A stretch of DNA of 64,000 nucleotides from an uncultured Gammaproteobacteria bacterium. GTDB lineage: Bacteria; Patescibacteriota; Patescibacteriia; Magasanikbacterales; GWA2-37-8. Under the pieces are notes generated by a model. The model had not been told where the DNA came from and made no database searches. It saw only the letters and a program-made list of their open reading frames with translations. Location: the NCBI GenBank assembly GCA_964444705.1, contig CAYUHX010000001.1:17055-81054 (forward strand), written 5' to 3'. Of this stretch, positions 23,840 through 60,986 are shown piece by piece. A program made the position numbers and the translations under genes. Each line of letters starts with the position of its first letter. Position 1 is the first letter of the stretch.

Positions 23840-23984
23840 ACACTATCCGTTAATAGTAACAGGTCTAATCCCGGCTGGCAAATTCGTATTCTTGAATAAA
23901 AATGGTGTTTTTGCTAGACTAGACACACTTTTATGTGCCTTTATTTTTCGCCAATTTAAAGGCTTCCGCACCCAATACATTAAT

Positions 23985-24057
23985 GCGCCTGTAGCTCAGG
24001 GGTTAGAGCGCCACCCTTATAAGGTGGATGTCGATGGTTCAATTCCATCCAGGCGCA
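23985..24057 (+). tRNA. tRNA-Ile with anticodon UAU (TAT)
   Basis: Manual cloverleaf fold: 7-bp acceptor GCGCCTG/CAGGCGC, D-stem GCTC/GAGC, anticodon stem CCACC/GGTGG with loop CTTATAA (U33, anticodon TAT, A37), T-stem GATGG/CCATC with loop TTCAATT, discriminator A73. No CCA encoded. Candidate promoter TTGAAT-17-TAGACT about 60 nt upstream. Confidence 0.85.
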
Positions 24058-24083
24058 CATTTATTTTCTAATCACAGATTAAT

Positions 24084-24437
24084 ATGCCTCTCACCTCTCT
24101 TCCTCTGGCCGGCGGAATGAAATTTGGTTCAGGCGCAAATTTGGGTCGAACCGGAATGCCTCCTTCACGCGTCGGCGGCATCGGTAGTATCAACCAAGCA
24201 AAAGGAGGTGCTCTCACCAGTGCCAGTAACCTAGGCAAAAAAATGAACAGCATTAGTCAAAATCAGGGCATAGCTCATGTGTACCAAGTCGGCGATCGCA
24301 CCGGTGTGCAGGGCGCTGGCGGATATGCGGGGCAAGGTAGCAATGTGAGTATTGCTCAAGCCATTAAAAATAAATCTCTCACTCCTCCCGGAACAACCAC
24401 CACCGGCGGAGTAAAACCGATTCTTCCACTTAAATAA
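24084..24437 (+). CDS. hypothetical Gly-rich small protein (117 aa)
   Basis: Open frame only. Composition slightly GC-richer than its surroundings. No SD. Confidence 0.3.
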   Translation: MPLTSLPLAGGMKFGSGANLGRTGMPPSRVGGIGSINQAKGGALTSASNLGKKMNSISQNQGIAHVYQVGDRTGVQGAGGYAGQGSNVSIAQAIKNKSLTPPGTTTTGGVKPILPLK

Positions 24438-24482: not shown

Positions 24483-25493
24483 ATGAATCCTATCGATTCC
24501 ATCATCGTCCCCACCGACACCAAACCTCAACGACTGGATATTTTTTTGGCCGAATACCTTAAAATAACCCGCTCACAAGTTCAAAAAAAAATCGAGGCTA
24601 ATGAAATTTTTGTGAATGGCACCCTGCCTAAAAAAGCTGGTGACACAATTCATGCTGGAGATAAAATTAGCCCTGTATCATCTACAAAAAAATCACCTAC
24701 AGTGGCCAGACCAACGAAAACTACCACCACGGTGACTCCAAAAGATCTCAAGCCAACTTTCGTCGCCACCACAACTGAATACGTGGTGATAGACAAACCT
24801 TCGGGTCTACTCACCCACCCTACCATGGCACATGAAAAAACTACGCTGGTTTCTTTTCTTGTCAAAAAATACCCATCCATAAAATTGGTCGGAGAAAACG
24901 ATCTCAGACCTGGCATTGTGCACCGTCTCGACAAAGAAGCTTCTGGCCTACTCGTAGCAGCGCGAACAGAAAAAATGTTCAAACATCTCAAAGAACAATT
25001 CAAAAATCGTACCGTAAGCAAAGAGTACCTCGTCCTTGTTCATGGTCGCACTTCTAAAGAAGAAGATACCATCAACTTTCCCCTCGCCCGTTCAGAAAAT
25101 GAAGATCGCATGGCCGCCCGCCCCCGAACTAAAATCAACGCCGATGGGAATGCGGCAGCTCTCCTCCCAGGAGAAAAAGAAGCCCTGACCGAATTTGTGG
25201 TAGAAAAATATTTTGTCAATTTCACCCTATTGCGTGTACGACTACATACTGGCCGCATGCACCAAATTCGTGCGCATCTTTTCGCCTACAACCACCCTGT
25301 GGTTGGCGACCCGCTGTATATTCAAAAAAAACGCAAACGAACCTGGGACGAACGACTGGGCCGCTTATTTCTTCACTGTACCAATTTGGGATTTAATGAT
25401 TTAAAAGGAGAAAAACAAACTTTTAATTCTCCTCTACCAAAAGAATTAGCCGAATTTTTAAACACCCTCGCCCCACAACCAACTAATTCCTAA
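24483..25493 (+). CDS. rluD: RluA-family 23S rRNA pseudouridine synthase (RluD-like) with N-terminal S4 domain
   Basis: S4 domain LDIFLAEYLKITRSQVQKKIEANEIFVNG. Catalytic HRLDKEASGLLVAART. C-terminal HTGRMHQIRAHL. Confidence 0.88.
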   Translation: MNPIDSIIVPTDTKPQRLDIFLAEYLKITRSQVQKKIEANEIFVNGTLPKKAGDTIHAGDKISPVSSTKKSPTVARPTKTTTTVTPKDLKPTFVATTTEYVVIDKPSGLLTHPTMAHEKTTLVSFLVKKYPSIKLVGENDLRPGIVHRLDKEASGLLVAARTEKMFKHLKEQFKNRTVSKEYLVLVHGRTSKEEDTINFPLARSENEDRMAARPRTKINADGNAAALLPGEKEALTEFVVEKYFVNFTLLRVRLHTGRMHQIRAHLFAYNHPVVGDPLYIQKKRKRTWDERLGRLFLHCTNLGFNDLKGEKQTFNSPLPKELAEFLNTLAPQPTNS

Positions 25494-31552: not shown

Positions 31553-34330
31553 CTATAAATACTTTGCGGTCCAACCTTTTTTGCGAGAGATAAGATCAGC
31601 CGGCGTACCAAAATCAACAATTTCACCACCACTCTCGCCTCCTTCAGGGCCAAGATCAATTACCCAATCACTGGAACGAATCATCTCCACATTATGCTCA
31701 ATCACAAGAACGCTATTACCTTTGTTCACCAAAGCATTAAGCACCTGGAGTAAGCGTTTAATATCTTCAAAGTGCAAACCTGTAGTAGGCTCATCCAGAA
31801 TATAAAGCGTTTTACCAGTAGAATGGCGCGCTAATTCTTGAGCAAGCTTGATACGCTGTGCCTCACCGCCTGAAAGGGTTGTAGCAGGTTGGCCAAGCTC
31901 AATATACCCCAAACCTACTTCACGGAGCACATTAAGCTTATCTGCAATCGCCGGAATATCACAAAAAAATTTAAACGCTTCTTCGACAGTCATCTTGAGC
32001 ACGTCGGCAATATGTTTGTTGTGATAATGCACTTCCAGAGCTTCTCGATTATACCGCCACCCACCACACTCATTACACTCCACATATACATCCGCCAAAA
32101 ATTGCATGGGAATACGAATATATCCATCACCACTACACGCTTCACATCGCCCACCACCCTTTACATTAAAACTAAATTTACCTGCATCATACGCACGCAT
32201 TCGTGCTTCTGGCAAAGACGCAAACAGATCTCGAATCAAATTAAAGATACCCGTATAAGTAGCCGGATTCGAACGTGGTGTGCGGCCAATCGGTGATTGA
32301 TCGATGGTAATCACCTTATCAATATGCGACAACCCCTGAATACTTTTGTGCGCCCCTGGCTCTTCTTTGGCGCGATAAAAATACTTAGCTAAGGCTTTAC
32401 TTAAAATATCGATAATTAATGTCGATTTACCCGATCCCGACACACCCGTAACACACACTAATCGACCAAGCGGAATATCGACATCAATATTTTTAAGGTT
32501 ATGAGCCGAAGCACCAGTAATCACAATTGACTTCCCCGTTCCTTTACGCACGACACGTTTTATAACCCCAATATTAGCTCGTCCAAAAAGATAGTCTGCC
32601 GTTAAAGAATCAGTTGATTTTTTAAACTCTTTAAGAGTGCCCTGTGCAATCACTTGTCCGCCATATACCCCGGCCCCTGGCCCCACATCAACCAAATAAT
32701 CGGCGGCGAGCATCATGGTGGCATCGTGCTCAACCACGATAACGGTATTACCCAAATCACGAAGATATTTAAGCGTTTCAATTAATTTTTGATTATCACG
32801 TGGGTGTAAACCAACCGATGGTTCGTCGAGCACATACACAATACCACTCAATCCCGAAGAGAGTTGCGTTGCCAAACGCACGCGAGTCACCTCACCGCCC
32901 GACAATGTATTCATGGCGCGATCAAGATTTAAATACCCTAAGCCTACACGCTCTAAATTTTCTAACCGCGGCACGATTTCACGAATAATCAAATCTGCCA
33001 CTTTTGAACTTTTTATTTCGCCTGTCAACACTCGTTTGACATCTTCCACATTCATCGCAGAAAAAGCCGAGATAGTATAATCTCCTAAACGTACGGCCAA
33101 CGACTCAGCCTTAAGACGTTTTCCTTGGCACACAGAACAAATTTTTTCTCGCATGTACTGCTCAATTTCTTTGCGCACATACTCAGAATTGGTTTCAAGG
33201 TGTTTGCTCATGAGATCGGGGATGACACCTACAAAACCAGTTTTCTTACCTTCAACGTCATACCATTCTTCGCCACTGCCATACAAAATGACATTCAAAA
33301 TTTTTGGTGATAAATCAACCACTGGAGTGTTGAGCGAAAAATTAAATCGATCGGCCACCGCTGCAAGAAGTTTGGTGTAAAAACTATGATTGCCGGTAAT
33401 ACGAGTCCAAGGCTGGATCGCACCTTCGGCTAAAGTAAGCCGTGCGTTTGGAATAACCAAACTCGCGTCAACCTCCATCGTCACCCCAAGACCAGTGCAA
33501 CGTGTGCACGCGCCATAGGGACTATTAAAACTAAAACTGCGCATATCAACCGGCGCCATGGTGCGACCACATTTTAAACAAATTCCCATGGTTGAACACA
33601 ATTTGTTTTTTTCTTCAGCCGAGAGCATCACCACCCCATTCGCAAGGTCAAGCGCACTTTCAATAAGCTTAGTAGGGTCTTGTTTTTTAATATCAGTAAT
33701 AGTGCCAATGAGTATCTCTACCGTGTAGAGGACATCTTTCTCAAACTGAAAATCAAGCAAATCGTTAATTTTAAAACGATTACCATTGAGACGCAACCAT
33801 TCAAACCCCGATTTTTCAATTCGCTCAAGTAATGATTTTTTTTCTATTTTTCCCTCGCGAATAAGAGGTGCATACACAGAAACTTCACCACTTTTACGGG
33901 CAAAACGACGTAATTCTTCCACAATTTCTCCACTCGTTTTCACCTCAACCGCCAAATGACATTCGGGGCAATACTGCTCACCCACGCGGGCAAAAAGCAA
34001 ACGCAAAAGATCATAAATCTCGGTTACGGTGCCCACGGTTGAACGTGGATTTTGCGTTGACATCTTTTGATCAATGGCGATAGTTGGCGATAAACCTTCA
34101 ATCGAATCGGCATCTGGTTTGTCTTGGGTTTCCATGAATTGTCGCGCATACGACGACATTGACTCCGCATAACGCCGCTGCCCTTCGGCATAAATAGTAT
34201 CAAACGCAAGACTCGATTTTCCTGATCCAGATAAACCAGTGATCACCACCAATTTATGCTTAGGAATTTCAATATCTACATTCTTTAAATTATGAACCCT
34301 GGCGCCACGAATTTTAATAGTGTCTGACAT
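31553..34330 (-). CDS. uvrA: excinuclease ABC subunit A (paralog 1, 925 aa)
   Basis: N-terminus [50 protein letters not shown]. Two ABC modules (second Walker [11 protein letters not shown]). Zn-finger cysteines. Confidence 0.92.
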   Translation of the reverse strand: MSDTIKIRGARVHNLKNVDIEIPKHKLVVITGLSGSGKSSLAFDTIYAEGQRRYAESMSSYARQFMETQDKPDADSIEGLSPTIAIDQKMSTQNPRSTVGTVTEIYDLLRLLFARVGEQYCPECHLAVEVKTSGEIVEELRRFARKSGEVSVYAPLIREGKIEKKSLLERIEKSGFEWLRLNGNRFKINDLLDFQFEKDVLYTVEILIGTITDIKKQDPTKLIESALDLANGVVMLSAEEKNKLCSTMGICLKCGRTMAPVDMRSFSFNSPYGACTRCTGLGVTMEVDASLVIPNARLTLAEGAIQPWTRITGNHSFYTKLLAAVADRFNFSLNTPVVDLSPKILNVILYGSGEEWYDVEGKKTGFVGVIPDLMSKHLETNSEYVRKEIEQYMREKICSVCQGKRLKAESLAVRLGDYTISAFSAMNVEDVKRVLTGEIKSSKVADLIIREIVPRLENLERVGLGYLNLDRAMNTLSGGEVTRVRLATQLSSGLSGIVYVLDEPSVGLHPRDNQKLIETLKYLRDLGNTVIVVEHDATMMLAADYLVDVGPGAGVYGGQVIAQGTLKEFKKSTDSLTADYLFGRANIGVIKRVVRKGTGKSIVITGASAHNLKNIDVDIPLGRLVCVTGVSGSGKSTLIIDILSKALAKYFYRAKEEPGAHKSIQGLSHIDKVITIDQSPIGRTPRSNPATYTGIFNLIRDLFASLPEARMRAYDAGKFSFNVKGGGRCEACSGDGYIRIPMQFLADVYVECNECGGWRYNREALEVHYHNKHIADVLKMTVEEAFKFFCDIPAIADKLNVLREVGLGYIELGQPATTLSGGEAQRIKLAQELARHSTGKTLYILDEPTTGLHFEDIKRLLQVLNALVNKGNSVLVIEHNVEMIRSSDWVIDLGPEGGESGGEIVDFGTPADLISRKKGWTAKYL

Positions 34331-42591: not shown

Positions 42592-43845
42592 CTAACGCTT
42601 TATTTTTCTCTTTGAACGATTAAAGGTAATTGCAAAACGATGTGCTTCATCACGCACACGAATGAGCGCCTCGCGATGGTGCGACACCCACGCCACGAGC
42701 GCCGGCTCCACACTCCCCAAAATAATATCGTTACGCTTTCGCTCTTTACCTTTAGCCAAACCTACTATGGGAATATCGACGTTTTTTGAACTAAGCACTT
42801 CTTTGGCACGATTCACCTGCGGTCGACCACCATCAATTAAAAAAAGAGTTGGCAACGGCCAATCAGCGTGTGCTAAACGACGATTCAACACCTCAGCTAA
42901 ACAATCTACATCACTCTGCCCCACTACTGTTTTAATGGTAAATTTTCGATAGGCTGCTTTAATTGGGCCATGCTCATCAGCAACCACCAAACTACCTACC
43001 TTGTCAGTGTCGCCCAAATTGGAAATATCATATCCTTCAATGCGATAATGATCTGCTTCATCGTTTGTCCCCGCGTGCTCTCTAAAAAATTCTTGATTTA
43101 AGAGAGCGACATCTTGAATACGATACAATGATTTTGATTGATCGCGCAGGCGCGCTGCTTCTTCAAAACGAAATTCTTTGGCTGCCAGCTTCATTTTATT
43201 TTCCCACTCTCGCACCAACTTCTTTTTTTCACCCTGTAAAAACAGCACCAGCGGCCGAATTACTTTTAACGCATAGTCGCGAGGACTAATTTCACCCGTA
43301 CAGACGCCCAGACACTCTTCCATCTGTCGATAGAGACAGGGCTTTAACGAAAGAGGTCGGCAACTCGAAAAACGAAATAATCGGCGAAGTAACTTCATGG
43401 TGGCCTTGGTATTGAGGCCAGGATACGGCCCGAACACATACTTGAAACCAGGCGGCACCTTTCCTTCTTCATGTGAAAGAAGACGCAGCTCGCGCTCACG
43501 AATAGTTTTCACCTGCGGATACAGCTCTTTCGTAATAATAATATAATTCCAACTTTTATCATCTTTACCAAGTACGTTGTATTTGGGTTGATTTTTTTTG
43601 ATGTACAACGCCTCTAAAATAATCGCCTCAAGCACTGATTCGGTTTCTTTCCACTCAATACGTGCCACCTCATGAATCATTTCTTCAATCGGCCGCGGCG
43701 TGCGTAGCCCACGAAAATAGCTTTGCACCCGGCTTTTAAGCGACGTTGCTTTACCCACATACACCAGCTCACCATCTTCAGAATAATACAAATAAATACC
43801 TGGGGCATCGGGTAATTTTTTAAAAACAGAATCAAATTTGTGCAT
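42592..43845 (-). CDS. uvrC: excinuclease ABC subunit C, compact form lacking the C-terminal (HhH)2 domain (417 aa)
   Basis: GIY-YIG N-terminus LPDAPGIYLYYSEDGELVYVGKATSLKSRVQSYF. UVR domain FRFEEAARLRDQ. RNase-H-like endonuclease domain RIEGYDISNLGDTDKVGSLVV...LIDGGRPQ. The frame ends before any helix-hairpin-helix pair. Confidence 0.85.
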   Translation of the reverse strand: MHKFDSVFKKLPDAPGIYLYYSEDGELVYVGKATSLKSRVQSYFRGLRTPRPIEEMIHEVARIEWKETESVLEAIILEALYIKKNQPKYNVLGKDDKSWNYIIITKELYPQVKTIRERELRLLSHEEGKVPPGFKYVFGPYPGLNTKATMKLLRRLFRFSSCRPLSLKPCLYRQMEECLGVCTGEISPRDYALKVIRPLVLFLQGEKKKLVREWENKMKLAAKEFRFEEAARLRDQSKSLYRIQDVALLNQEFFREHAGTNDEADHYRIEGYDISNLGDTDKVGSLVVADEHGPIKAAYRKFTIKTVVGQSDVDCLAEVLNRRLAHADWPLPTLFLIDGGRPQVNRAKEVLSSKNVDIPIVGLAKGKERKRNDIILGSVEPALVAWVSHHREALIRVRDEAHRFAITFNRSKRKIKR

Positions 43846-44375: not shown

Positions 44376-44415
44376 CACTTGCGCCCGTCGATCCCTACGT
44401 CCTGAGGAGGACCGC

Positions 44416-45105
44416 ATGAACCGCATCCGTCGCAACTCGTTCCTGTCCCGCTACCTGCTGGCCGCCAGCCTGGCCGCCAGCCCGCTGACCACCGGCTGCG
44501 GCACGCCCGAGCCCACCACCCCGGTGGCACCGCAGCCCAGCACCCTGGCCAAGGTGAGCCGGAAGATCCCCGCCGACGGGGAGACCACGGGCCGGAGCCC
44601 GCTGGTGGGGGCGCTGCTCGACCGGCAGGTCACCGTCGGCGTCGCCAGCTTCACCATCACCCCCCACGCCGACGGCACGGCCAACGCCGAGGCCGGCGCC
44701 GTCTTCTGGAAGCCCAATGCGGAGCTGAAGGCCGGCCAGCGGTACGAGTGGACCATGGTCTTCAACGACCGCGGCTACGAGACGACCCTGAAGGGCAACT
44801 TCACCGTGGCCAAGGACCCCCCGCCCGCGCCGATGGGCCCCCTGTGGGGGCTCTCTGAGGGCACCCTGGGTGGGGCCACCAAGCAGTTCACCTGCAGCGG
44901 TACCCACGCCGGCCAGTACTACCTGACGGTCACCAAGGCCGGTGACGGCGCGCTGATCTGGGGCCAGAAGGTGGGCGGCTTCGGGCAGGAGTTCTACTAC
45001 ATCAACTCCCAGGACCTGGCGGCCACGTACCTCCAGACGGGCATCGTCTCGGGGATCACCTTCAGCGCCGAGGGCCTGCAGGAGGGTACCACCACCTGCA
45101 AGTAG
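44416..45105 (+). CDS. lipoprotein of unknown function encoded in a high-GC (about 70%) island
   Basis: SD GAGGAGG 6 nt upstream of the ATG. Signal peptide plus lipobox LAASLAASPLTTGC. GC3-rich codon usage unlike neighbouring genes. Downstream hairpin terminator at 45276-45312. Confidence 0.7.
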   Translation: MNRIRRNSFLSRYLLAASLAASPLTTGCGTPEPTTPVAPQPSTLAKVSRKIPADGETTGRSPLVGALLDRQVTVGVASFTITPHADGTANAEAGAVFWKPNAELKAGQRYEWTMVFNDRGYETTLKGNFTVAKDPPPAPMGPLWGLSEGTLGGATKQFTCSGTHAGQYYLTVTKAGDGALIWGQKVGGFGQEFYYINSQDLAATYLQTGIVSGITFSAEGLQEGTTTCK

Positions 45106-45275
45106 CGGCGCTGCCGCCCGACCCGCGGCGGCGCACACCGGCCATCAAATCGCTTGATCCACCGCTCCGTTCCGCAGCCCCCGCTCGCCTAAACCTGCTC
45201 GCCCACTTCGGTGCGAACAGCGGTGCGAGGGGGGCCTGCATCTGTTGAATAAAAGAACTGTCTTTTGTTCATAGA

Positions 45276-48038: not shown

Positions 48039-48202
48039 ACTATTTTAGTAATTAATGATTAAATTTATAGTACTATAATACCACAAAAACTGCATTTTGT
48101 CAAGCTAAAATTTAGCTAAATTTAGATAAAAATAGCGTACTGTTCGCAAATAAACACCCAAACCAGTGGACACTCCGCCCCAAAATGATAGACTACTTTT
48201 CT

Positions 48203-50281
48203 ATGCCTTTTAAACTTGTTTCTTCCTACCAACCATCGGGTGACCAACCAAAAGCCATTGATCAGCTTGTCTCTGGCTTAAAACAAGGGTTTAAAAAACA
48301 AACCCTGCTTGGTGTTACTGGCTCTGGCAAAACGTTTACCATGGCAAACGTGATTACCAAGCTGCAACGACCAACTTTAGTGATCGCTCACAATAAAACC
48401 TTGGCTGCCCAACTGTGCAACGAATTTCGTGAATTTTTTCCCGAAAATGCAGTGGAATATTTTGTCAGTTACTACGATTATTATCAGCCTGAGGCCTACA
48501 TGCCGCACAGCGATACCTATATTGAAAAAGAGGCGCAAATCAACCAAGAAATTGATCGCTTGCGCCACGCCTGCACCCAAGCCCTACTCACCCGTGAAGA
48601 TGTGATTATTGTGGCGTCGGTATCAGCCATTTACGGTTTGGGTTCACCAAAAGAATACGAACAAATCGTCCTCCACGTGCGCGTGGGAGAGCTCCTTAAT
48701 CGGCGCGACATGCTCGAACACCTCATCAGCATGCAATTTGAACGCACCAATCTTGAGTTAACCCGCGGCTCATTTCGCCTCACCGGCCAAGTGATTGAGG
48801 TAATGCCAGTCAACGAAGAAATGATTTATCGCCTCGAAATAGGCAATACTATTAATAACATTGAAATCATTGACCCAGTGACTCGTAAATTACGCCACAC
48901 CGTCAACGACGCCTGGTTCTTTCCTGCGAAACATTACGTCGTGGGCGAACAAGCAAAAGCGCACGCCATTGAAACAATTCAAACTGAATTGACGGAACAG
49001 CTGGCTGCCTTTGAACGACAGGGAAAAGTACTTGAGCATGAACGGTTAAAACGCCGAGTGAGTTATGATCTTGAACTTATTCGCAATCTTGGTTATTGCA
49101 ATGGCATTGAAAATTATTCCCGCCATTTTGATGGCCGCGCCGAGGGCGAGCCGCCGTTTAGTCTGCTTGACTATTTTACCCACGGTGCACGTACATTTCT
49201 CACCATTATCGATGAATCACACGTCACGTTACCCCAGCTTCGTGCGATGTATGCCGGCGACAGAGCCCGCAAAGAAACATTGGTTGAACACGGGTTTCGT
49301 TTACCAAGCGCCAAAGACAATCGTCCGCTCACCTACCCTGAGTTTGAAGCACGCACCGAAGGAGTGATATATGTTTCCGCCACACCAACTGAATATGAAA
49401 TAGCAGAAAGTGCCCAGGTGGTAGAACAGGTGGTGCGCCCCACTGGTCTTATTGACCCGGAAGTGCTCATCTGCCCCATCACTGGCCTCGGCAATCTTTC
49501 ACAAATTGAAGATCTTTTGGTGCGCATTGAGGCACGGATCAAAAAAAATGAACGTGTGCTCGTAACCACACTCACCAAACGTATGGCCGAAGACCTCACC
49601 GATTATTTACATGAGAAAAAAATTAAAGTGAGCTACCTTCACAGCGATATCAAAACTCTTGAGCGGGTGGAAACAATTATGAATTTACGCTTGGGAAAAA
49701 TTGATGTGCTGGTAGGTGTCAACCTGCTCCGCGAAGGCCTTGATATGCCTGAGGTGTCCCTCGTTGCCATTCTTGATGCGGATAAAGAAGGTTTTCTGCG
49801 CAGTGAAACCAGCTTAATTCAAACCATAGGCCGCGCGGCCCGCAATGTAAATGGGCAGGTTGTGTTGTATGCAGATCACTCCACTGGCTCGATTGAGCGA
49901 GCAGTGGCTGAAACGAATCGTCGCCGTGCCATTCAACTCGCCTACAATACGGAACATGGCATCACTCCGAAAACAATTGAAAAAACAATTCGAAATATTT
50001 TGGAAGAGTTTGGTATTTCTGAAAAGAATAAGGAGCATGGAACAAGGAACAAAAAAAACCACACACTCAGCACTACCGATCTCGATTTACTCGGCGATGC
50101 CAGACCACTTAAAGACATTATCAAAGACAAAGAGGCGCAGATGAAAGAAGCGGCGCGCACATTAGAATTTGAGCTGGCTGCAATTTTGCGTGATGAGGTG
50201 CGTGAACTCACTGCTCGACTTAAAACTGGCGAGAAAACGACTCATCAAAAAAAATCTACTCCCCGACGAAAAAAAATATGA
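48203..50281 (+). CDS. uvrB: excinuclease ABC subunit B
   Basis: N-terminus MPFKLVSSYQPSGDQPKAIDQLVSGL. Walker A TLLGVTGSGKTFT. Helicase motifs. C-terminal UVR domain LEFELAAILRDEVRELTARL. Confidence 0.92.
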   Translation: MPFKLVSSYQPSGDQPKAIDQLVSGLKQGFKKQTLLGVTGSGKTFTMANVITKLQRPTLVIAHNKTLAAQLCNEFREFFPENAVEYFVSYYDYYQPEAYMPHSDTYIEKEAQINQEIDRLRHACTQALLTREDVIIVASVSAIYGLGSPKEYEQIVLHVRVGELLNRRDMLEHLISMQFERTNLELTRGSFRLTGQVIEVMPVNEEMIYRLEIGNTINNIEIIDPVTRKLRHTVNDAWFFPAKHYVVGEQAKAHAIETIQTELTEQLAAFERQGKVLEHERLKRRVSYDLELIRNLGYCNGIENYSRHFDGRAEGEPPFSLLDYFTHGARTFLTIIDESHVTLPQLRAMYAGDRARKETLVEHGFRLPSAKDNRPLTYPEFEARTEGVIYVSATPTEYEIAESAQVVEQVVRPTGLIDPEVLICPITGLGNLSQIEDLLVRIEARIKKNERVLVTTLTKRMAEDLTDYLHEKKIKVSYLHSDIKTLERVETIMNLRLGKIDVLVGVNLLREGLDMPEVSLVAILDADKEGFLRSETSLIQTIGRAARNVNGQVVLYADHSTGSIERAVAETNRRRAIQLAYNTEHGITPKTIEKTIRNILEEFGISEKNKEHGTRNKKNHTLSTTDLDLLGDARPLKDIIKDKEAQMKEAARTLEFELAAILRDEVRELTARLKTGEKTTHQKKSTPRRKKI

Positions 50282-54491: not shown

Positions 54492-56240
54492 TCACTGCCG
54501 ACACCAGGCACAACCCCACCAGGAGGAGGAAGAACCAGTGGTGGGGCCAGGGCTTCCAGAACCTCCCGAGCGCGGCGCGAGCTTGCTGACCAGCGCCAGC
54601 CCCATGGGGGACAGGCACAGCTCAGCCAGGGTGACGACGAAGTAGCTGCTGATGAGCCAGAGCGGGCTCACTCGGCCAGAGTTGCCACCGGCGAGCGAAC
54701 CCACCACCATGATCAGGTACGAGATGGCCGTAAGCACCATCCCAATGCCGATCTTGGCTGCGGTGGACGGCTGACGGCCGCGCTTCTCGAGGAAGACTCC
54801 GAAGAACCAGTTGAGAACTGGCGTCAGAGTCACGACGAAAAACGGGTTGACGCTATTGTAAACAATAGCGCCGGGCTTCCAGCCGAGGATGCTCTCGCGG
54901 GTGTGGTCGTCGGCCCAGAAGACCAAAACGCTGCCGTTCTGGTGAAACGCCGCCCAGAAAAAAATGACAATCACACAAATAACACTGATCGCGAGGATCC
55001 GTAGACCCTCGACGAGCGGCGGCTCGCGCGCGTCTTCGTATTCCTTGGGCAAGGGGACCCCAAGGACGGCCGCGACACTCGATCTCTGATCCGCCAGCTT
55101 GAACCAGCGGTAGCACGCGGCGGCGATGACGAAGCCGACCATCATGCCGACACCGGCCGCCGAGAATGCCGCCGCCCACCCGTAGTGCGCCACCATGTAG
55201 TCGGCAACAAAGGGGCTAAAAAATGCCCCAATGTTGACGCCCATGTAGAAGACGCTGAAGGCAGCGTCCCGCCGCGAATCGCCGGCGGGATACATGTTCC
55301 CCAGCATCGTCCCGATGCTGGGCTTGAACATGCCGTTCCCCAAGACGATGAGAATGATCGCCGTCCAGAGAAACTTGGGAGGAGCGCCGAGCGCGAAGTA
55401 GCCCACGGCCATGAGGGCCGCGCCGAAGAGCACCGCCTTCCGATAGCCCAGCCACCGGTCGGCGATGATGCCCCCGAAGAACGGGGCGAAATAGGTCAAC
55501 GCGATGAAGCTCCCATACGTACTCGAGGCTTCGGCCGCCGAGTACCCCAAGTGCTTCTTGAGGTACAAGGTGAAAATGGCCAGCATCAGGTAGTAGCCGA
55601 AGCGCTCCCACATCTCGACCATAAAAAACGCGTAGAGCTGACGCGGGTGCCGGGGACCAGAGGAGCGGCGGGTCGCGAGCTTGCTGAGGAGGCGAGCGAT
55701 CGGACGGAATGGCCAGTTCCGCCTGGTCACGGCCCAGTCATCGGCTAAGAGCCAACTCCAATACCGGAGCTCCGCCATGAGCTCGCCGATCCAGGGGTGC
55801 GCCTTGAGGAAGCGCGCCCGGCGGTAAGCCGCGATGCGAGCCTGCTGCGCCCTCCTCTCGGCGCGCTCCGCCTGCCGAATGGCGTTGATGCGGGCCGCGC
55901 CATCACGGCGGATCTGCTGGGCACGCTCGAACGCAGCGAAACGCGCGAGAAGCCGCTGCCACGGGGGCGACACGCCCGAGTGGACCAGCGCGTACGCCGC
56001 CCGCCCGGCGGTGAAAAACCAGAAGATGGCGGGCGCGACGAAGTTGAAAAACTCACGGGCCGGCGGGGCAAGCCGCTGCCGAACGGCGTCCACGGTCGCG
56101 AGCACGCGCCGTTTGACGCTGGCGAACGTCGCGGCCACCACGGTGAAAAATGCGATGATCTTGAGCACCACCCGCTCCTCGATGAGAAGCTGCGGAGCCG
56201 TCATAGTTGCCTTGGCCTGGATCGGACGCTTTCTCTTCAT
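54492..56240 (-). CDS. POT/PTR2-family proton-dependent oligopeptide transporter in a high-GC (about 65%) island, with an about 190-aa N-terminal extension and a probable 3' frameshift (continuation likely in frame 54271-54618)
   Basis: PTR2 signature FFMVEMWERFGYYLMLAIFTLYL, GGIIADRWLGYRKAVLFGAALMAVGYFALG and LAELCLSPMGLALVSKLAP. After KLAP the frame degenerates (SGGSGSPGPTTGSSSSWW) while the overlapping -frame reads a plausible TM (HHWFFLLLVGLCLVSAVILW). Confidence 0.7.
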   Translation of the reverse strand: MKRKRPIQAKATMTAPQLLIEERVVLKIIAFFTVVAATFASVKRRVLATVDAVRQRLAPPAREFFNFVAPAIFWFFTAGRAAYALVHSGVSPPWQRLLARFAAFERAQQIRRDGAARINAIRQAERAERRAQQARIAAYRRARFLKAHPWIGELMAELRYWSWLLADDWAVTRRNWPFRPIARLLSKLATRRSSGPRHPRQLYAFFMVEMWERFGYYLMLAIFTLYLKKHLGYSAAEASSTYGSFIALTYFAPFFGGIIADRWLGYRKAVLFGAALMAVGYFALGAPPKFLWTAIILIVLGNGMFKPSIGTMLGNMYPAGDSRRDAAFSVFYMGVNIGAFFSPFVADYMVAHYGWAAAFSAAGVGMMVGFVIAAACYRWFKLADQRSSVAAVLGVPLPKEYEDAREPPLVEGLRILAISVICVIVIFFWAAFHQNGSVLVFWADDHTRESILGWKPGAIVYNSVNPFFVVTLTPVLNWFFGVFLEKRGRQPSTAAKIGIGMVLTAISYLIMVVGSLAGGNSGRVSPLWLISSYFVVTLAELCLSPMGLALVSKLAPRSGGSGSPGPTTGSSSSWWGCAWCRQ

Positions 56241-57562: not shown

Positions 57563-57731
57563 ATAACTATGTAAGAAATAAAAACATGTTTATGCTAACA
57601 TAAATAAACGCAAAGTCAATTAAGGTTTGACAAAAAAAATACACCGAGTTAAGCTAATTTTACTTCTTCTCTACGAAAGATGAGGCCCCGCCGTGGGCTT
57701 TTTTAGATTCGTACGACCTACTTATATTTTT

Positions 57732-60407
57732 ATGGATAAAATTACCATTAAAGGCGCCCGAGAACATAACCTAAAAAACATTTCTCTTGAGCTGCCACGC
57801 AACAAAATGATTGTGTTTACGGGTTTGTCTGGTTCGGGAAAATCAAGCCTCGCGTTTGATACTATCTTTGCCGAAGGTCAGCGTCGCTATATTGAAAGTT
57901 TGTCCGCCTATGCGCGGCAATTTTTGGGTGGTATGCAAAAACCTGATGTGGATGAAATCGAAGGCTTGTCCCCCGCTATTTCTATTGACCAAAAAGCGCA
58001 TAGTGCAAACCCGCGTTCTACGGTGGCCACCATCACCGAAATCTACGATTACCTGCGCGTGTTGTTTGCTCGCGTCGGCGCACCACATTGCCCCATCTGT
58101 GGCACCAAAATAGAAAAAATGACTATCGATCAAATGATTGAACGAATAGTGAAAGGAATAAAAAATAAAGACAAAGAAAAAAATGTATTAACCATTCTTT
58201 CTCCCATAGTCCGCGGACGCAAAGGTGAATATTACCAATTACTCTATGACACCTATAACTCTGGCTACCTTGAGGTGCGCGTTGATGGCAAAATAAAAAG
58301 TCTGCGAGAAAGAATTGTCTTATCAAAAAACAATGCGCACACCATTGAAGTTATTGTCGATAAAATTCCATTAAAATTTGACGAAAAAAATCTAAAATCA
58401 AAAACTACTACACCGCTATCAGAAGATGATTCCCAACGCCTCACCGAAGCAGTACGTTCGGCCACCGATCTTTCAAACGGCCTTTGTACAGTCATTTACC
58501 CCAGCGGTGAGGAGCAGGTATACAGCACCGAATATTCCTGCCCCAACGATGGGTTTAGCTTCCCAGAAATTGAGCCGCGCTTGTTTAGTTTCAACAGCCC
58601 CTATGGCTACTGCGAAGCCTGCACCGGCCTTGGTACCAAAGAACTTTTCAGCACCGAAATATGCACCGTCTGCCAAGGTAAACGTCTCAACAAAAATGCA
58701 CTTAGTGTAAAAGTGGGTACCAAAAACATTTGGGAAATCACCACGCTCACCATTAGTGATGCGCGCGAATTTTTTGCCGCAGTCGACATGGAGCTGAGCG
58801 ACACTGAGCGAGAAATTTCTGGTGCAGTGCTTAAAGAAATCGGCAATCGTTTACAATTCATGTTTAATGTAGGTTTGCATTATTTGAGTCTCAACCGCAA
58901 AGCCGGCACTCTCTCGGGTGGCGAGGCGCAACGCATTCGCCTCGCGTCGCAAGTGGGCACCAAACTCGTCGGTGCGCTTTATGTGCTCGACGAGCCCACC
59001 ATTGGACTCCACCAAAAAGACAATGACCAGTTGGTGAAAACGCTTCGCAATCTCTGCGATGTGGGCAACACCATCATCGTGGTGGAGCACGACGAAGACA
59101 CCATTCTTGCGAGTGATTGGCTCGTTGATTTTGGCCCGGGCGCCGGAAAGCATGGTGGCGAAGTGGTGTATTCTGGTCCACTCACCACACTGCTCGAAAC
59201 ACGCAACGACACGAATGTAAAAAAATCTACTGCCCGCGCGCTTGGTGCGACTGTGGCTATCCCAAAGAAAAAAAATTCTGAAGACCTGGTTGGTCAAACC
59301 GCCTTTCACTGCGCTCTTCAAGGCAGTGCCCTCCAGTCGCTCACTGGGCAGTATTTGCGCGGTGAAAAAACCATCGCTATTCCAGAAACACGGCGCAAAG
59401 TTGATTCCGCGACACCAAAAATAAAAATCAAAGGCGCCAAAGAACACAACCTTAAAAACATCACCGTTGAAATTCCACTCCGACGTTTGGTGTGTCTTAC
59501 CGGCGTCTCGGGATCGGGCAAGTCAACCCTCATGCATGATATTTTGCATGAAGCGGTAACGAATAAATTTTTCCGCACGAGCCGAGTCGTCGGCGCGCAC
59601 CAAGAAATTACCGGCCTTGAATATATTGATCGCATGATTACCATTGATCAATCGCCGATCGGCCGTACCCCCCGCTCTAACCCCGCAACATATACCAAAG
59701 CTTTTGATATCATTCGCGACTTATTTTCTTCCACCGCCGAAGCCAAAATCCGCGGCTTTAAAAACGGAATGTTTAGCTTCAATGTCCCCGGTGGACGCTG
59801 CGAGCACTGCGAAGGACGTGGCACACTCGAAATTGAAATGCACTTCTTGCCAAGTGTAGAAATTGTCTGTGATGTGTGCCGAGGAAAACGTTTTACTCAA
59901 GATGTGCTTCAAATTCATTACAAAGAAAAAAATATTTCTGAAGTTTTGAGCATGACCGTCGAAGAAGCGGAAGAATTTTTTCGCGACGTTCCTCTCATTC
60001 ATGATAAATTAAAAATGCTGAAAGAAGTGGGTCTTGATTATCTCACGCTTGGGCAATCAGCCACGACGCTTTCAGGCGGTGAAGCACAACGCATCAAGCT
60101 CTCGAAAGAACTTTCTAAATACGGCACGAGCAAAACACTCTACCTCTTGGACGAACCCACCACCGGTCTCCACTACGAAGATGTACGCAAATTAGTGGAT
60201 GTACTCCAACGCCTGGTTTCGCAAGGCAACACGGTGATGGTGATTGAACACAATCTTGATGTGATCAAATCTGCCGACTGGATTATTGATCTTGGCCCAG
60301 AAGGTGGTGACAAAGGGGGTCAATTAGTTGCCACTGGCACGCCCGAAGAAGTAGCTAAAAAAAGTGGCAGCGCCACTGGGCATTATTTAAAAAGACTTCT
60401 GAAATAA
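57732..60407 (+). CDS. uvrA: excinuclease ABC subunit A paralog 2 (UvrA-like, about 892 aa)
   Basis: N-terminus [65 protein letters not shown]. Second ABC module [18 protein letters not shown] signature LSGGEAQRI twice. Cys clusters. Confidence 0.88.
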
Positions 60408-60494: not shown

Positions 60495-60915
60495 CGCTCA
60501 TAACAGGTAATCGCCCCGACGTAAAGTCGGGGAGGAAAGTCCGAACACCCTACCCTCCGCCTCGTGCGGAGATTGAAAAAGGTAGTGGGTAACACCCACC
60601 CTTTGTTTCGTGAGGAGCAAGGCGGGACAGTGGCACAGAGACAATACTAACCAGTGCTTGGCACTGGCGAAAGGTGAAAAGTGTGAGGAGGTAAAAAATC
60701 TTCGGATTTCTTGCCACCCCACTCCTCGGCTGGCAACAGCCGAGTGTGCTAAACCCTACCTGGTGCAAGAGCAGCCCCAAATTCCCTTTATGGAATTTGT
60801 CGGAAAAGTTCGCTCGCACAGATTCCGTCAGCAATGCCGGAGCCAGAGAAATGATTACCACTCCCCCATCTAAAAAATGGTGGAGCACAAAATTCGGCTT
60901 ATCGTTATGAGCATC
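60495..60915 (+). ncRNA. rnpB: RNase P RNA (bacterial type A-like)
   Basis: Conserved P4 5' strand GGAGGAAAGTCCGAACAC and 3' strand ACAAAATTCGGCTTATCG, with compensatory CCGAA/TTCGG changes relative to the common CCGGG/CCCGG. P1 closing helix GCTCATAAC...GTTATGAGC. GGTAACACCC (P10-P12 region) present. Only short spurious ORFs overlap. Confidence 0.85.
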
Positions 60916-60986
60916 CTAAAACCTCTCTTCCTCAGAGAGGTTTTAGTTTGACGATGAACCGCTTTAGGCATAAAATAGCTCGTACT

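Follow-up and report, generated by a model that had tools for sequence, protein, structure and literature searches.

The tRNA-Ile(UAU) gene and its fold

The DNA analyzed here (the window) is a 64,000-nucleotide stretch of contig CAYUHX010000001.1 that carries a single tRNA gene, a tRNA-Ile with the anticodon UAU. An earlier note, made from the letters of the window, had placed a tRNA at 23985–24057 with a clean cloverleaf, the anticodon loop CUUAUAA and the anticodon UAU, and all of these were confirmed by ARAGORN, by Rfam and by minimum free energy (MFE) folding. ARAGORN called tRNA-Ile with the anticodon (tat) at position 34 at 23985–24058 (+), with the same anticodon position and fold, and this tRNA-Ile(tat) was the only tRNA it called over the 64 kb. 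The Rfam family RF00005 matched 23985–24057 (+) with 74.5 bits (gathering score 29, E = 1.8e-14) over model positions 1–71 of 71, and the gene is therefore a full-length member of the tRNA family.

Divided into its segments, the gene reads GCGCCTG TA GCTC AGGGGTTA GAGC G CCACC CTTATAA GGTGG ATGTC GATGG TTCAATT CCATC CAGGCGC A as DNA and GCGCCUG-UA-GCUC-AGGGGUUA-GAGC-G-CCACC-CUUAUAA-GGUGG-AUGUC-GAUGG-UUCAAUU-CCAUC-CAGGCGC-A as RNA, and raw numbering coincides with standard tRNA numbering (Table 1). The unconstrained MFE structure was a perfect cloverleaf of −31.8 kcal/mol, compared to a mean of −20.6 kcal/mol for shuffled sequences (z = −3.6), and none of 200 shuffles was as stable. The 3′ CCA was absent from the gene, with CATTT coming after A73, so a CCA-adding enzyme is needed. 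A weak sigma-70-like promoter candidate was located 5′ of the gene; the scan for promoters and terminators around the tRNA did no better than chance (two sites versus a shuffle mean of 1.8) and is not evidence of function.

Table 1 Coordinates of the tRNA-Ile(UAU) gene, its parts and other features of the window.
Feature	Position	Strand	Basis
tRNA-Ile(UAU) gene, 73 nt, positions 1–73	23985..24057	+	ARAGORN, Rfam, MFE cloverleaf and homologue covariation
Acceptor stem 5′ strand GCGCCUG (partner 24050–24056; includes C4-G69)	23985..23991	+	
Anticodon loop C32 U33 U34 A35 U36 A37 A38 (CUUAUAA, 7 nt)	24016..24022	+	Direct reading and ARAGORN
Anticodon TAT (U34 A35 U36)	24018–24020	+	Direct reading and ARAGORN placement at position 34
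Discriminator A73	24057	+	
Weak sigma-70-like promoter candidate, TAGACA-16-TATTTT, ~38 nt 5′ of the tRNA	23920..23947	+	Consensus scan, 9/12
Gly/Ser-rich open reading frame (ORF), 117 aa, directly 3′ of the tRNA	24084–24437	+	
RluA-family pseudouridine synthase, same strand, 3′ of the tRNA	24483–25493	+	TIGR00005, 203 bits
UvrA-like ABC ATPase	31553–34330	−	
UvrC	42592–43845		
Mirror ORFs of 229 aa (+) and 247 aa (−)	within 44395–45138	+/−	
UvrB	48185–50281		
POT/MFS peptide transporter	54492–56240	−	
UvrA-like ABC ATPase	57693–60407	+	
Bacterial class A RNase P RNA, full-length	60495–60917	+	Rfam, 155.8 bits

Conservation of the tRNA across related genomes

To define the family, genomes (one per GTDB species) were scanned with a pattern that fixes the anticodon arm and the T-arm of the window tRNA, and metagenomes were scanned with the same pattern, in which C or T was allowed at position 34. 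The matches comprised 32 GTDB species-level genomes and 55 metagenome contigs, 87 copies altogether; as the pattern was deliberately narrow, the genome count is to be read as at least 32. The related loci, which carry labels of the form L001, number 87 and cover 641 kb, with ~8 kb per genome. ARAGORN called tRNA-Ile(tat) in all 32 matched genomes. Position 34 was T in 87 of the 87 copies and C in none under a pattern permitting either, which argues that the tRNA body is fixed for UAU and does not toggle with a CAU form.

The alignment of 54 distinct sequences was scored against the cloverleaf at 21 stem pairs (1134 pair cells), and 99.3% of the cells were Watson-Crick or G-U. Double-sided compensatory changes were found at 10 of the 21 pairs, including all seven of the acceptor stem and three of the five in the T-stem. 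None of 500 column shuffles reached the observed pairing and covariation values, and when the 3′ partners were shifted by one to three columns, pairing fell to 22–44%. The anticodon arm, the end of the D-stem and the T-loop were fixed or partly fixed in the search pattern, and invariance in these parts carries no information. From this pairing pattern, we judge that tRNA-Ile(UAU) is under long-term functional constraint and is not a pseudogene.

The host chromosome

The titles of the 32 genomes were Magasanikbacteria or Magasanikiibacteriota (within the Patescibacteria group according to NCBI), Buchananbacteria, Kuenenbacteria, "Patescibacteria group", "Saccharibacteria" (two genomes) and "uncultured Gammaproteobacteria" (13 genomes), and nearly all of the 32 belong to the candidate phyla radiation (CPR). 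The last title was borne by L003, L005, L006, L008, L010, L018, L019, L021–L023, L026, L027 and L032. The nearest relatives of the window were among these 13 co-assembly metagenome-assembled genomes (MAGs), namely L005 and L008, whose tRNA was 98.6% identical, and L022, L027 and L032.

The gene order QueA-YceG-(NUDIX)-PAP2-tRNA-RluA family-Gmk-L19-UvrA was common to the window, these relatives and L007, a member of the Magasanikiibacteriota, with proteins 50–82% identical. Since the nearest relatives share synteny and 50–80% protein identity with Magasanikbacteria, the "Gammaproteobacteria" titles are almost certainly wrong. Judging from gene order and gene content, the window is chromosomal DNA of a Magasanikbacteria-like bacterium of the Patescibacteria/CPR. 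The claim in the earlier note that a UAU tRNA-Ile occurs in a minority of reduced or unusual genomes fits this CPR host.

AUA codons and isoleucine identity

Codons were counted in 34 confidently identified window genes (14,662 codons). AUA made up 82 of them, which is 5.6 per 1000 and 9% of the isoleucine codons. It did not occur in the genes for EF-Ts, S2, L11, NusG, L25 and L31, and it was present in L19 and most enzymes. This frequency is "medium" AUA usage on the scale of PMC12514573 and similar to that of E. coli.

At window AUA sites, the homologues in the related loci had isoleucine in 41%, valine in 21%, leucine in 14% and methionine in 2% of cases, and these values were 33%, 24%, 16% and 2%, respectively, after subject ATA codons were excluded to avoid circularity. 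At ATG sites, 55% of the homologue residues were methionine, and the AUA profile resembled that of ATT and ATC sites and not that of ATG sites. AUA sites thus align with isoleucine, valine or leucine and hardly with methionine, indicating that AUA is read as isoleucine.

Among 5,426 annotated E. coli genomes, the best match of the window tRNA was the rRNA-operon tRNA-Ile(GAU) (84% identity), with 60 of 73 positions identical compared to 55 of 73 for ileX. The identity elements recognized by isoleucyl-tRNA synthetase (IleRS) in E. coli are A73, C4-G69, U12-A23, A37, A38 and C29-G41, which we take as the reference set. A73, U12-A23, A37 and A38 were invariant across all 54 family sequences, and C4-G69 was present in 50 of the 54 while the neighboring acceptor pairs varied freely. 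By these comparisons, the tRNA body appears to be of the isoleucine type.

Together, these results make it likely that the locus is a functional chromosomal tRNA-Ile gene with a DNA-encoded UAU anticodon that reads AUA in a Magasanikbacteria-like member of the CPR, with the function predicted from sequence. In the proposed pathway, RNase P would trim the 5′ end of the transcript, a CCA-adding enzyme would add CCA after transcription, A37 would by precedent be converted to N6-threonylcarbamoyladenosine (t6A), and IleRS would charge the tRNA with isoleucine. The minor codon AUA would then be read through a U34-A pair. Following the precedents of Mycoplasma mobile and Bacillus subtilis, misreading of AUG would be limited by the intrinsically weak binding of U34 to G, together with adaptation of the ribosome and IleRS. 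An IleRS adapted to U34 would have Arg or Lys at the position of E. coli W905 (Arg865 in M. mobile) or be of the eukaryote type. No ileS gene was found in the window or the related loci, and the class I synthetases beside the tRNA in relatives were ValRS.

Relation to the lysidine system

Telling AUA from AUG is a long-recognized difficulty of the genetic code, which nearly all bacteria overcome with lysidine. The tRNA-Ile2(CAU)/lysidine class was rejected for the window tRNA itself, with the gene anticodon being TAT and C34 occurring in 0 of 87 copies. Going by precedent, it is slightly more likely than not that tRNA-Ile(UAU) is the dedicated, and probably the only, AUA decoder in the lineage, replacing tRNA-Ile2(CAU) and TilS. 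We favor this replacement because the UAU gene has been strictly kept over the long term in streamlined genomes and no CAU form of its body was found. More tentatively, whole CPR lineages (Magasanikbacteria-, Buchananbacteria- and Kuenenbacteria-like, with at least 32 species-level genomes) may have given up the lysidine system, leaving a vertically inherited tRNA-Ile(UAU) as the sole AUA decoder.

We looked for TilS in several ways. Pfam and NCBIfam scans of ORFs of at least 100 aa found no PF01171/TilS gene in the 64-kb window, which is only part of the genome. There was also no ORF with an SGGxDS PP-loop in the window and the 641 kb of the 87 related loci, a sample of ~0.6 genome-equivalents that is too small to show absence. 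With regard to the tilS-hpt-ftsH linkage, which is widespread in other bacteria, FtsH had no PF01171 neighbor in L070 or L088 (CPR FtsH, 929-kb contig), and this linkage may not hold in the CPR. A search seeded with residues 24–240 of Aquifex TilS (from a PDB alignment) returned Aquificae for 120 of the 120 matches listed and none from the CPR, which is no proof of absence.

No observation speaks against a real tRNA that reads AUA as isoleucine, but several caveats apply to the evidence for it or to the sole-decoder part. The invariance of the anticodon arm is partly by construction, since the search pattern fixed it, and the pair at positions 29-41 is A29-U41 and not the C29-G41 of the E. coli IleRS identity set. 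The sole-decoder part draws on 64 kb of the genome and ~8 kb per relative. At 14 of the related loci, a CAU tRNA that is not the initiator adjoins the UAU gene, and in BLAST comparisons with E. coli it is not cleanly distinguished from tRNA-Ile2. Finally, bacteria that have tilS and tRNA-Ile(UAU) together exist (PMC3575796).

The last two points bear on an alternative that we regard as unlikely but worth serious weight, in which the genome keeps tilS and tRNA-Ile2(CAU) and the UAU tRNA serves alongside them as a redundant second AUA decoder. Such a "transition state" with both systems has been proposed for Lactobacillus casei, Cyanothece and Ferrimonas, and TilS is near-universal, being described as evolutionarily stable and present in 98.18% of the bacteria surveyed (PMC6063277). 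The adjoining CAU tRNA had an island tRNA-Ile(CAU) as its best local BLAST match in E. coli, with 82% identity over 68% of the length. Against redundancy, strong purifying selection acts on the UAU tRNA in streamlined genomes that diverged deeply, in which a redundant gene would not be expected to last, and a CAU variant of the tRNA body was seen in 0 of 87 copies. The lack of an SGGxDS PP-loop ORF in the sample described above points the same way, weakly.

The CAU tRNAs of the 14 loci are also more simply explained as methionine tRNAs. At each of these loci, exactly two CAU tRNA genes are located within ~1 kb of the UAU gene. A C1xA72 mismatch and a GGG/CCC anticodon stem clearly mark the first as an initiator. 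In the second, A/U4-U/A69 takes the place of C4-G69, and because an elongator tRNA-Met is also required in every genome, this gene is probably the elongator tRNA-Met.

The cluster of the UAU, fMet and second CAU tRNA genes, which groups three tRNAs of the AUN box, was observed in L001, L014, L020, L036, L044, L046, L048, L050, L054, L061, L064, L074 and L082. In other loci the UAU gene stood beside tRNA-Val(GAC) and ValRS, and in L030 it stood beside the gene for the CCA-adding enzyme. The ValRS next to tRNA-Ile(UAU) in L076 (2628–5801, +) was 1058 aa long with a ~180-aa insertion in the middle of the synthetase, which by eye resembled a histidine-phosphatase (phosphoglycerate-mutase-like) domain.

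State of U34

According to the earlier note, a UAU anticodon implied a modified U34 that avoids misreading AUG; bacterial precedent runs contrary to this. In M. mobile, U34 of the native tRNA-Ile(UAU) is unmodified, Arg865 of IleRS recognizes the anticodon, and the cognate ribosome rejects AUG, which the E. coli ribosome does not (PMC3575796). In the suppressor tRNA of a B. subtilis tilS deletion, U34 is likewise unmodified, and this tRNA binds AUA strongly and AUG weakly, with misincorporation of ~10^-3 (PMC3919564). These are the only two chemically analyzed bacterial cases, and both oppose the inference of a modified U34. By analogy with them, U34 of the window tRNA is probably unmodified or lightly modified.

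It would be improbable, then, that U34 must be enzymatically modified against AUG, either to pseudouridine, possibly by the adjacent RluA-family synthase, or to an xm5U-type nucleotide. The idea draws on the RluA-family gene that follows the tRNA on the same strand, an adjacency seen in 10 of the 32 related genomes, and on the eukaryotic tRNA-Ile(UAU), which carries pseudouridine at position 34 (psi34). However, both bacterial UAU tRNAs analyzed by mass spectrometry or thin-layer chromatography had an unmodified U34 (PMC3575796, PMC3919564), and psi34 was explicitly excluded in the B. subtilis suppressor (PMC3919564). The neighboring synthase has an S4 + RluD-like architecture typical of 23S rRNA helix-69 synthases, and its adjacency to the tRNA is part of a longer lineage-level syntenic block that includes Gmk and L19. 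In addition, no MnmA, MnmE, MnmG or Cmo genes were found in the window.

Artefact, mobile cargo and codon reassignment

The chance that the gene is a pseudogene, an assembly artefact or a tRNA borne by a phage or mobile element is negligible. Such an origin might be suspected from its being the only tRNA in 64 kb and from the insertion and duplication scars in the tRNA-Ile(UAU) genes of a few related genomes, but the perfect cloverleaf, high Rfam score and compensatory evolution, and the syntenic position between housekeeping genes in several genomes, effectively refute it. No half-tRNA copies flank the gene in the window, and the tRNA pattern had no match among 2.9 million viral contigs of IMG/VR.

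A change of the genetic code, with AUA reassigned (for example to methionine, as in many mitochondria) and the tRNA charged with an amino acid other than isoleucine, is just as remote. A UAU anticodon would read AUA regardless of the attached amino acid, and some CPR lineages use altered genetic codes. This reading was rejected on the homologue residues at AUA sites, which were isoleucine, valine or leucine as at ATT and ATC sites, with 2% methionine compared to 55% at ATG sites; the tRNA body also appears to be of the isoleucine type, and all 34 genes translated cleanly with table 11.

Nested tRNA genes in relatives

In a few relatives (L029 7700–7945 on the minus strand, L024 2900–3175 on the minus strand, and also L045 and L051), an insert of ~190 nt interrupts the anticodon loop of an older outer tRNA-Ile(UAU). 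Within the insert lies an intact inner tRNA-Ile(UAU), and a TATAA duplication marks both junctions. L049 retains a 3′ remnant together with a homologous flank, and possible fragments were found in L010 (7609–7649) and L020 (3050–3082). Base pairing between the flanks of the insert forms a long helix that sits atop the outer anticodon stem (MFE −81.9 kcal/mol, z = −4.5). On inspection by eye, L029 and L024 have different sequences in these paired flanks. No match to a group I intron family was obtained for the nested tRNA inserts.

The outer halves contain stem mismatches, with an extra GC-rich hairpin in the D-loop of L024, and look like decaying remnants. The arrangement looks like the replacement of a tRNA gene through an inserted cassette, and the nested genes may represent either a tRNA-carrying cassette directed at its own tRNA gene or the scar of an old recombination event.

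Other genes of the window

Pfam and NCBIfam scans covered essentially all ORFs of at least 100 aa in the window. The housekeeping genes included those for AspRS, GAPDH, EF-Ts, S2, GyrB, NusG, L11, QueA, YceG, Gmk and L19, and further genes encoded UvrB, UvrC, two UvrA paralogues, RF1/PrmC, L31, L25 and FtsW. Also encoded were a type IV secretion system (T4SS) pilin-like protein, a 2278-aa surface protein and glycosyltransferases. The RNase P RNA listed in Table 1 is the ribozyme that would process the 5′ leader of tRNA-Ile(UAU).

The 117-aa ORF directly 3′ of the tRNA was without a Pfam or NCBIfam match and had a counterpart at the equivalent position in L005 (46% identity), as a small lineage-specific protein. 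The second UvrA was without a Pfam match to the UvrA DNA-binding domain and may be a class II UvrA paralogue. The segment of the POT/MFS transporter gene had a GC content of 61.6%, compared to ~44% for the window, and the gene used ATC 24 times, ATT nine times and ATA not at all, a preference opposite to that of the other window genes. This transporter gene was probably acquired horizontally. A GC-rich patch at 44–46 kb (52.9% GC) contained two mirror ORFs, both without a Pfam match, and nothing but a trivial 12-nt tandem repeat.

Comparison with known systems

The kind of tRNA described here, termed tRNA-Ile3 in PMC8450103, is already known; its occurrence across at least 32 species-level CPR genomes is the added point. 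Genome-encoded tRNA-Ile(UAU) is known from M. mobile and other haemoplasma-type mycoplasmas, Bifidobacterium, Neorickettsia, a few bacteria that keep tilS, Nanoarchaeum and Korarchaeum. It replaces tRNA-Ile2(CAU) in only 17 bacterial genomes of a tRNAscan-SE 2.0 survey (PMC8450103), genes with the TAT anticodon were found in 19 species in tRNADB-CE (PMC4013482), and a 2026 preprint speaks of "rare cases" (10.64898/2026.02.03.703510). Set against the 98.18% of bacteria with TilS, these counts bear out the earlier note, which had called a UAU tRNA-Ile the rarer alternative to tRNA-Ile2(CAU) with TilS. Within the library searched, full-text searches found no paper that relates lysidine or tilS to CPR, Patescibacteria or Saccharibacteria.

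The tRNA-Ile2(UAU) of M. mobile (Taniguchi et al. 2013, PMC3575796) is likewise bacterial, encoded as UAU in a reduced genome and dedicated to AUA. M. mobile belongs to the Mollicutes and not the Patescibacteria, and the loss of tilS and tRNA-Ile(CAT) and the biochemistry are documented there. The mycoplasma trait is also limited to a few species, compared to at least 32 species-level genomes under several CPR titles. In Bifidobacterium and Neorickettsia, tRNA-Ile(UAU) similarly takes the place of tRNA-Ile2(CAU) in related species (PMC3575796, PMC8450103), where it is paired with a eukaryote-type IleRS and tilS is absent (PMC3575796). The B. subtilis suppressor, tRNA-Ile1 G34U (PMC3919564), resembles the window tRNA in having a UAU anticodon on a tRNA-Ile1-like body. 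However, it arose by mutation in the laboratory in one of several copies of its gene, whereas the window gene is natural, fixed, separately located and long selected.

The usual pair of tRNA-Ile2(CAU) and TilS serves the same end, reading AUA as isoleucine without reading AUG. It differs in having C at position 34, where the UAU gene has T in all 87 copies, and with T34 in the gene, lysidine formation on the window tRNA is neither possible nor needed. An encoded UAU anticodon also reads AUA in Nanoarchaeum, itself an ultra-small episymbiont-type organism, in Korarchaeum and in eukaryotes. These represent other domains; the eukaryotic tRNA relies on psi34/psi36, and the archaeal tRNAs take the place of agmatidine/TiaS.

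Implications for the CPR

The published natural exceptions to the lysidine system number 17–19 genomes or species, all from cultured groups. In part of the CPR, a very large branch of mostly uncultured bacteria that have minimal genomes and atypical ribosomes, our results show the UAU solution to be fixed and vertically conserved as well. If tilS is present in these genomes, the UAU tRNA would represent an ordinary redundancy of the kind already described. If lysidine has been abandoned, no other natural bacterial group lacking TilS would come close to them in size.

The bac120 marker set includes the TilS N-terminal model. With the lysidine system gone, marker sets based on TilS and completeness checks that expect three CAU tRNAs would systematically mis-score these genomes when MAG quality is rated. 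Abandonment of lysidine would also imply a co-adapted IleRS and CPR ribosomes, already unusual, that together keep U34 off AUG. If tilS is absent, this part of the CPR would be another natural system, independent of the first and far broader, in which to study how IleRS and the ribosome make up for an unmodified U34.

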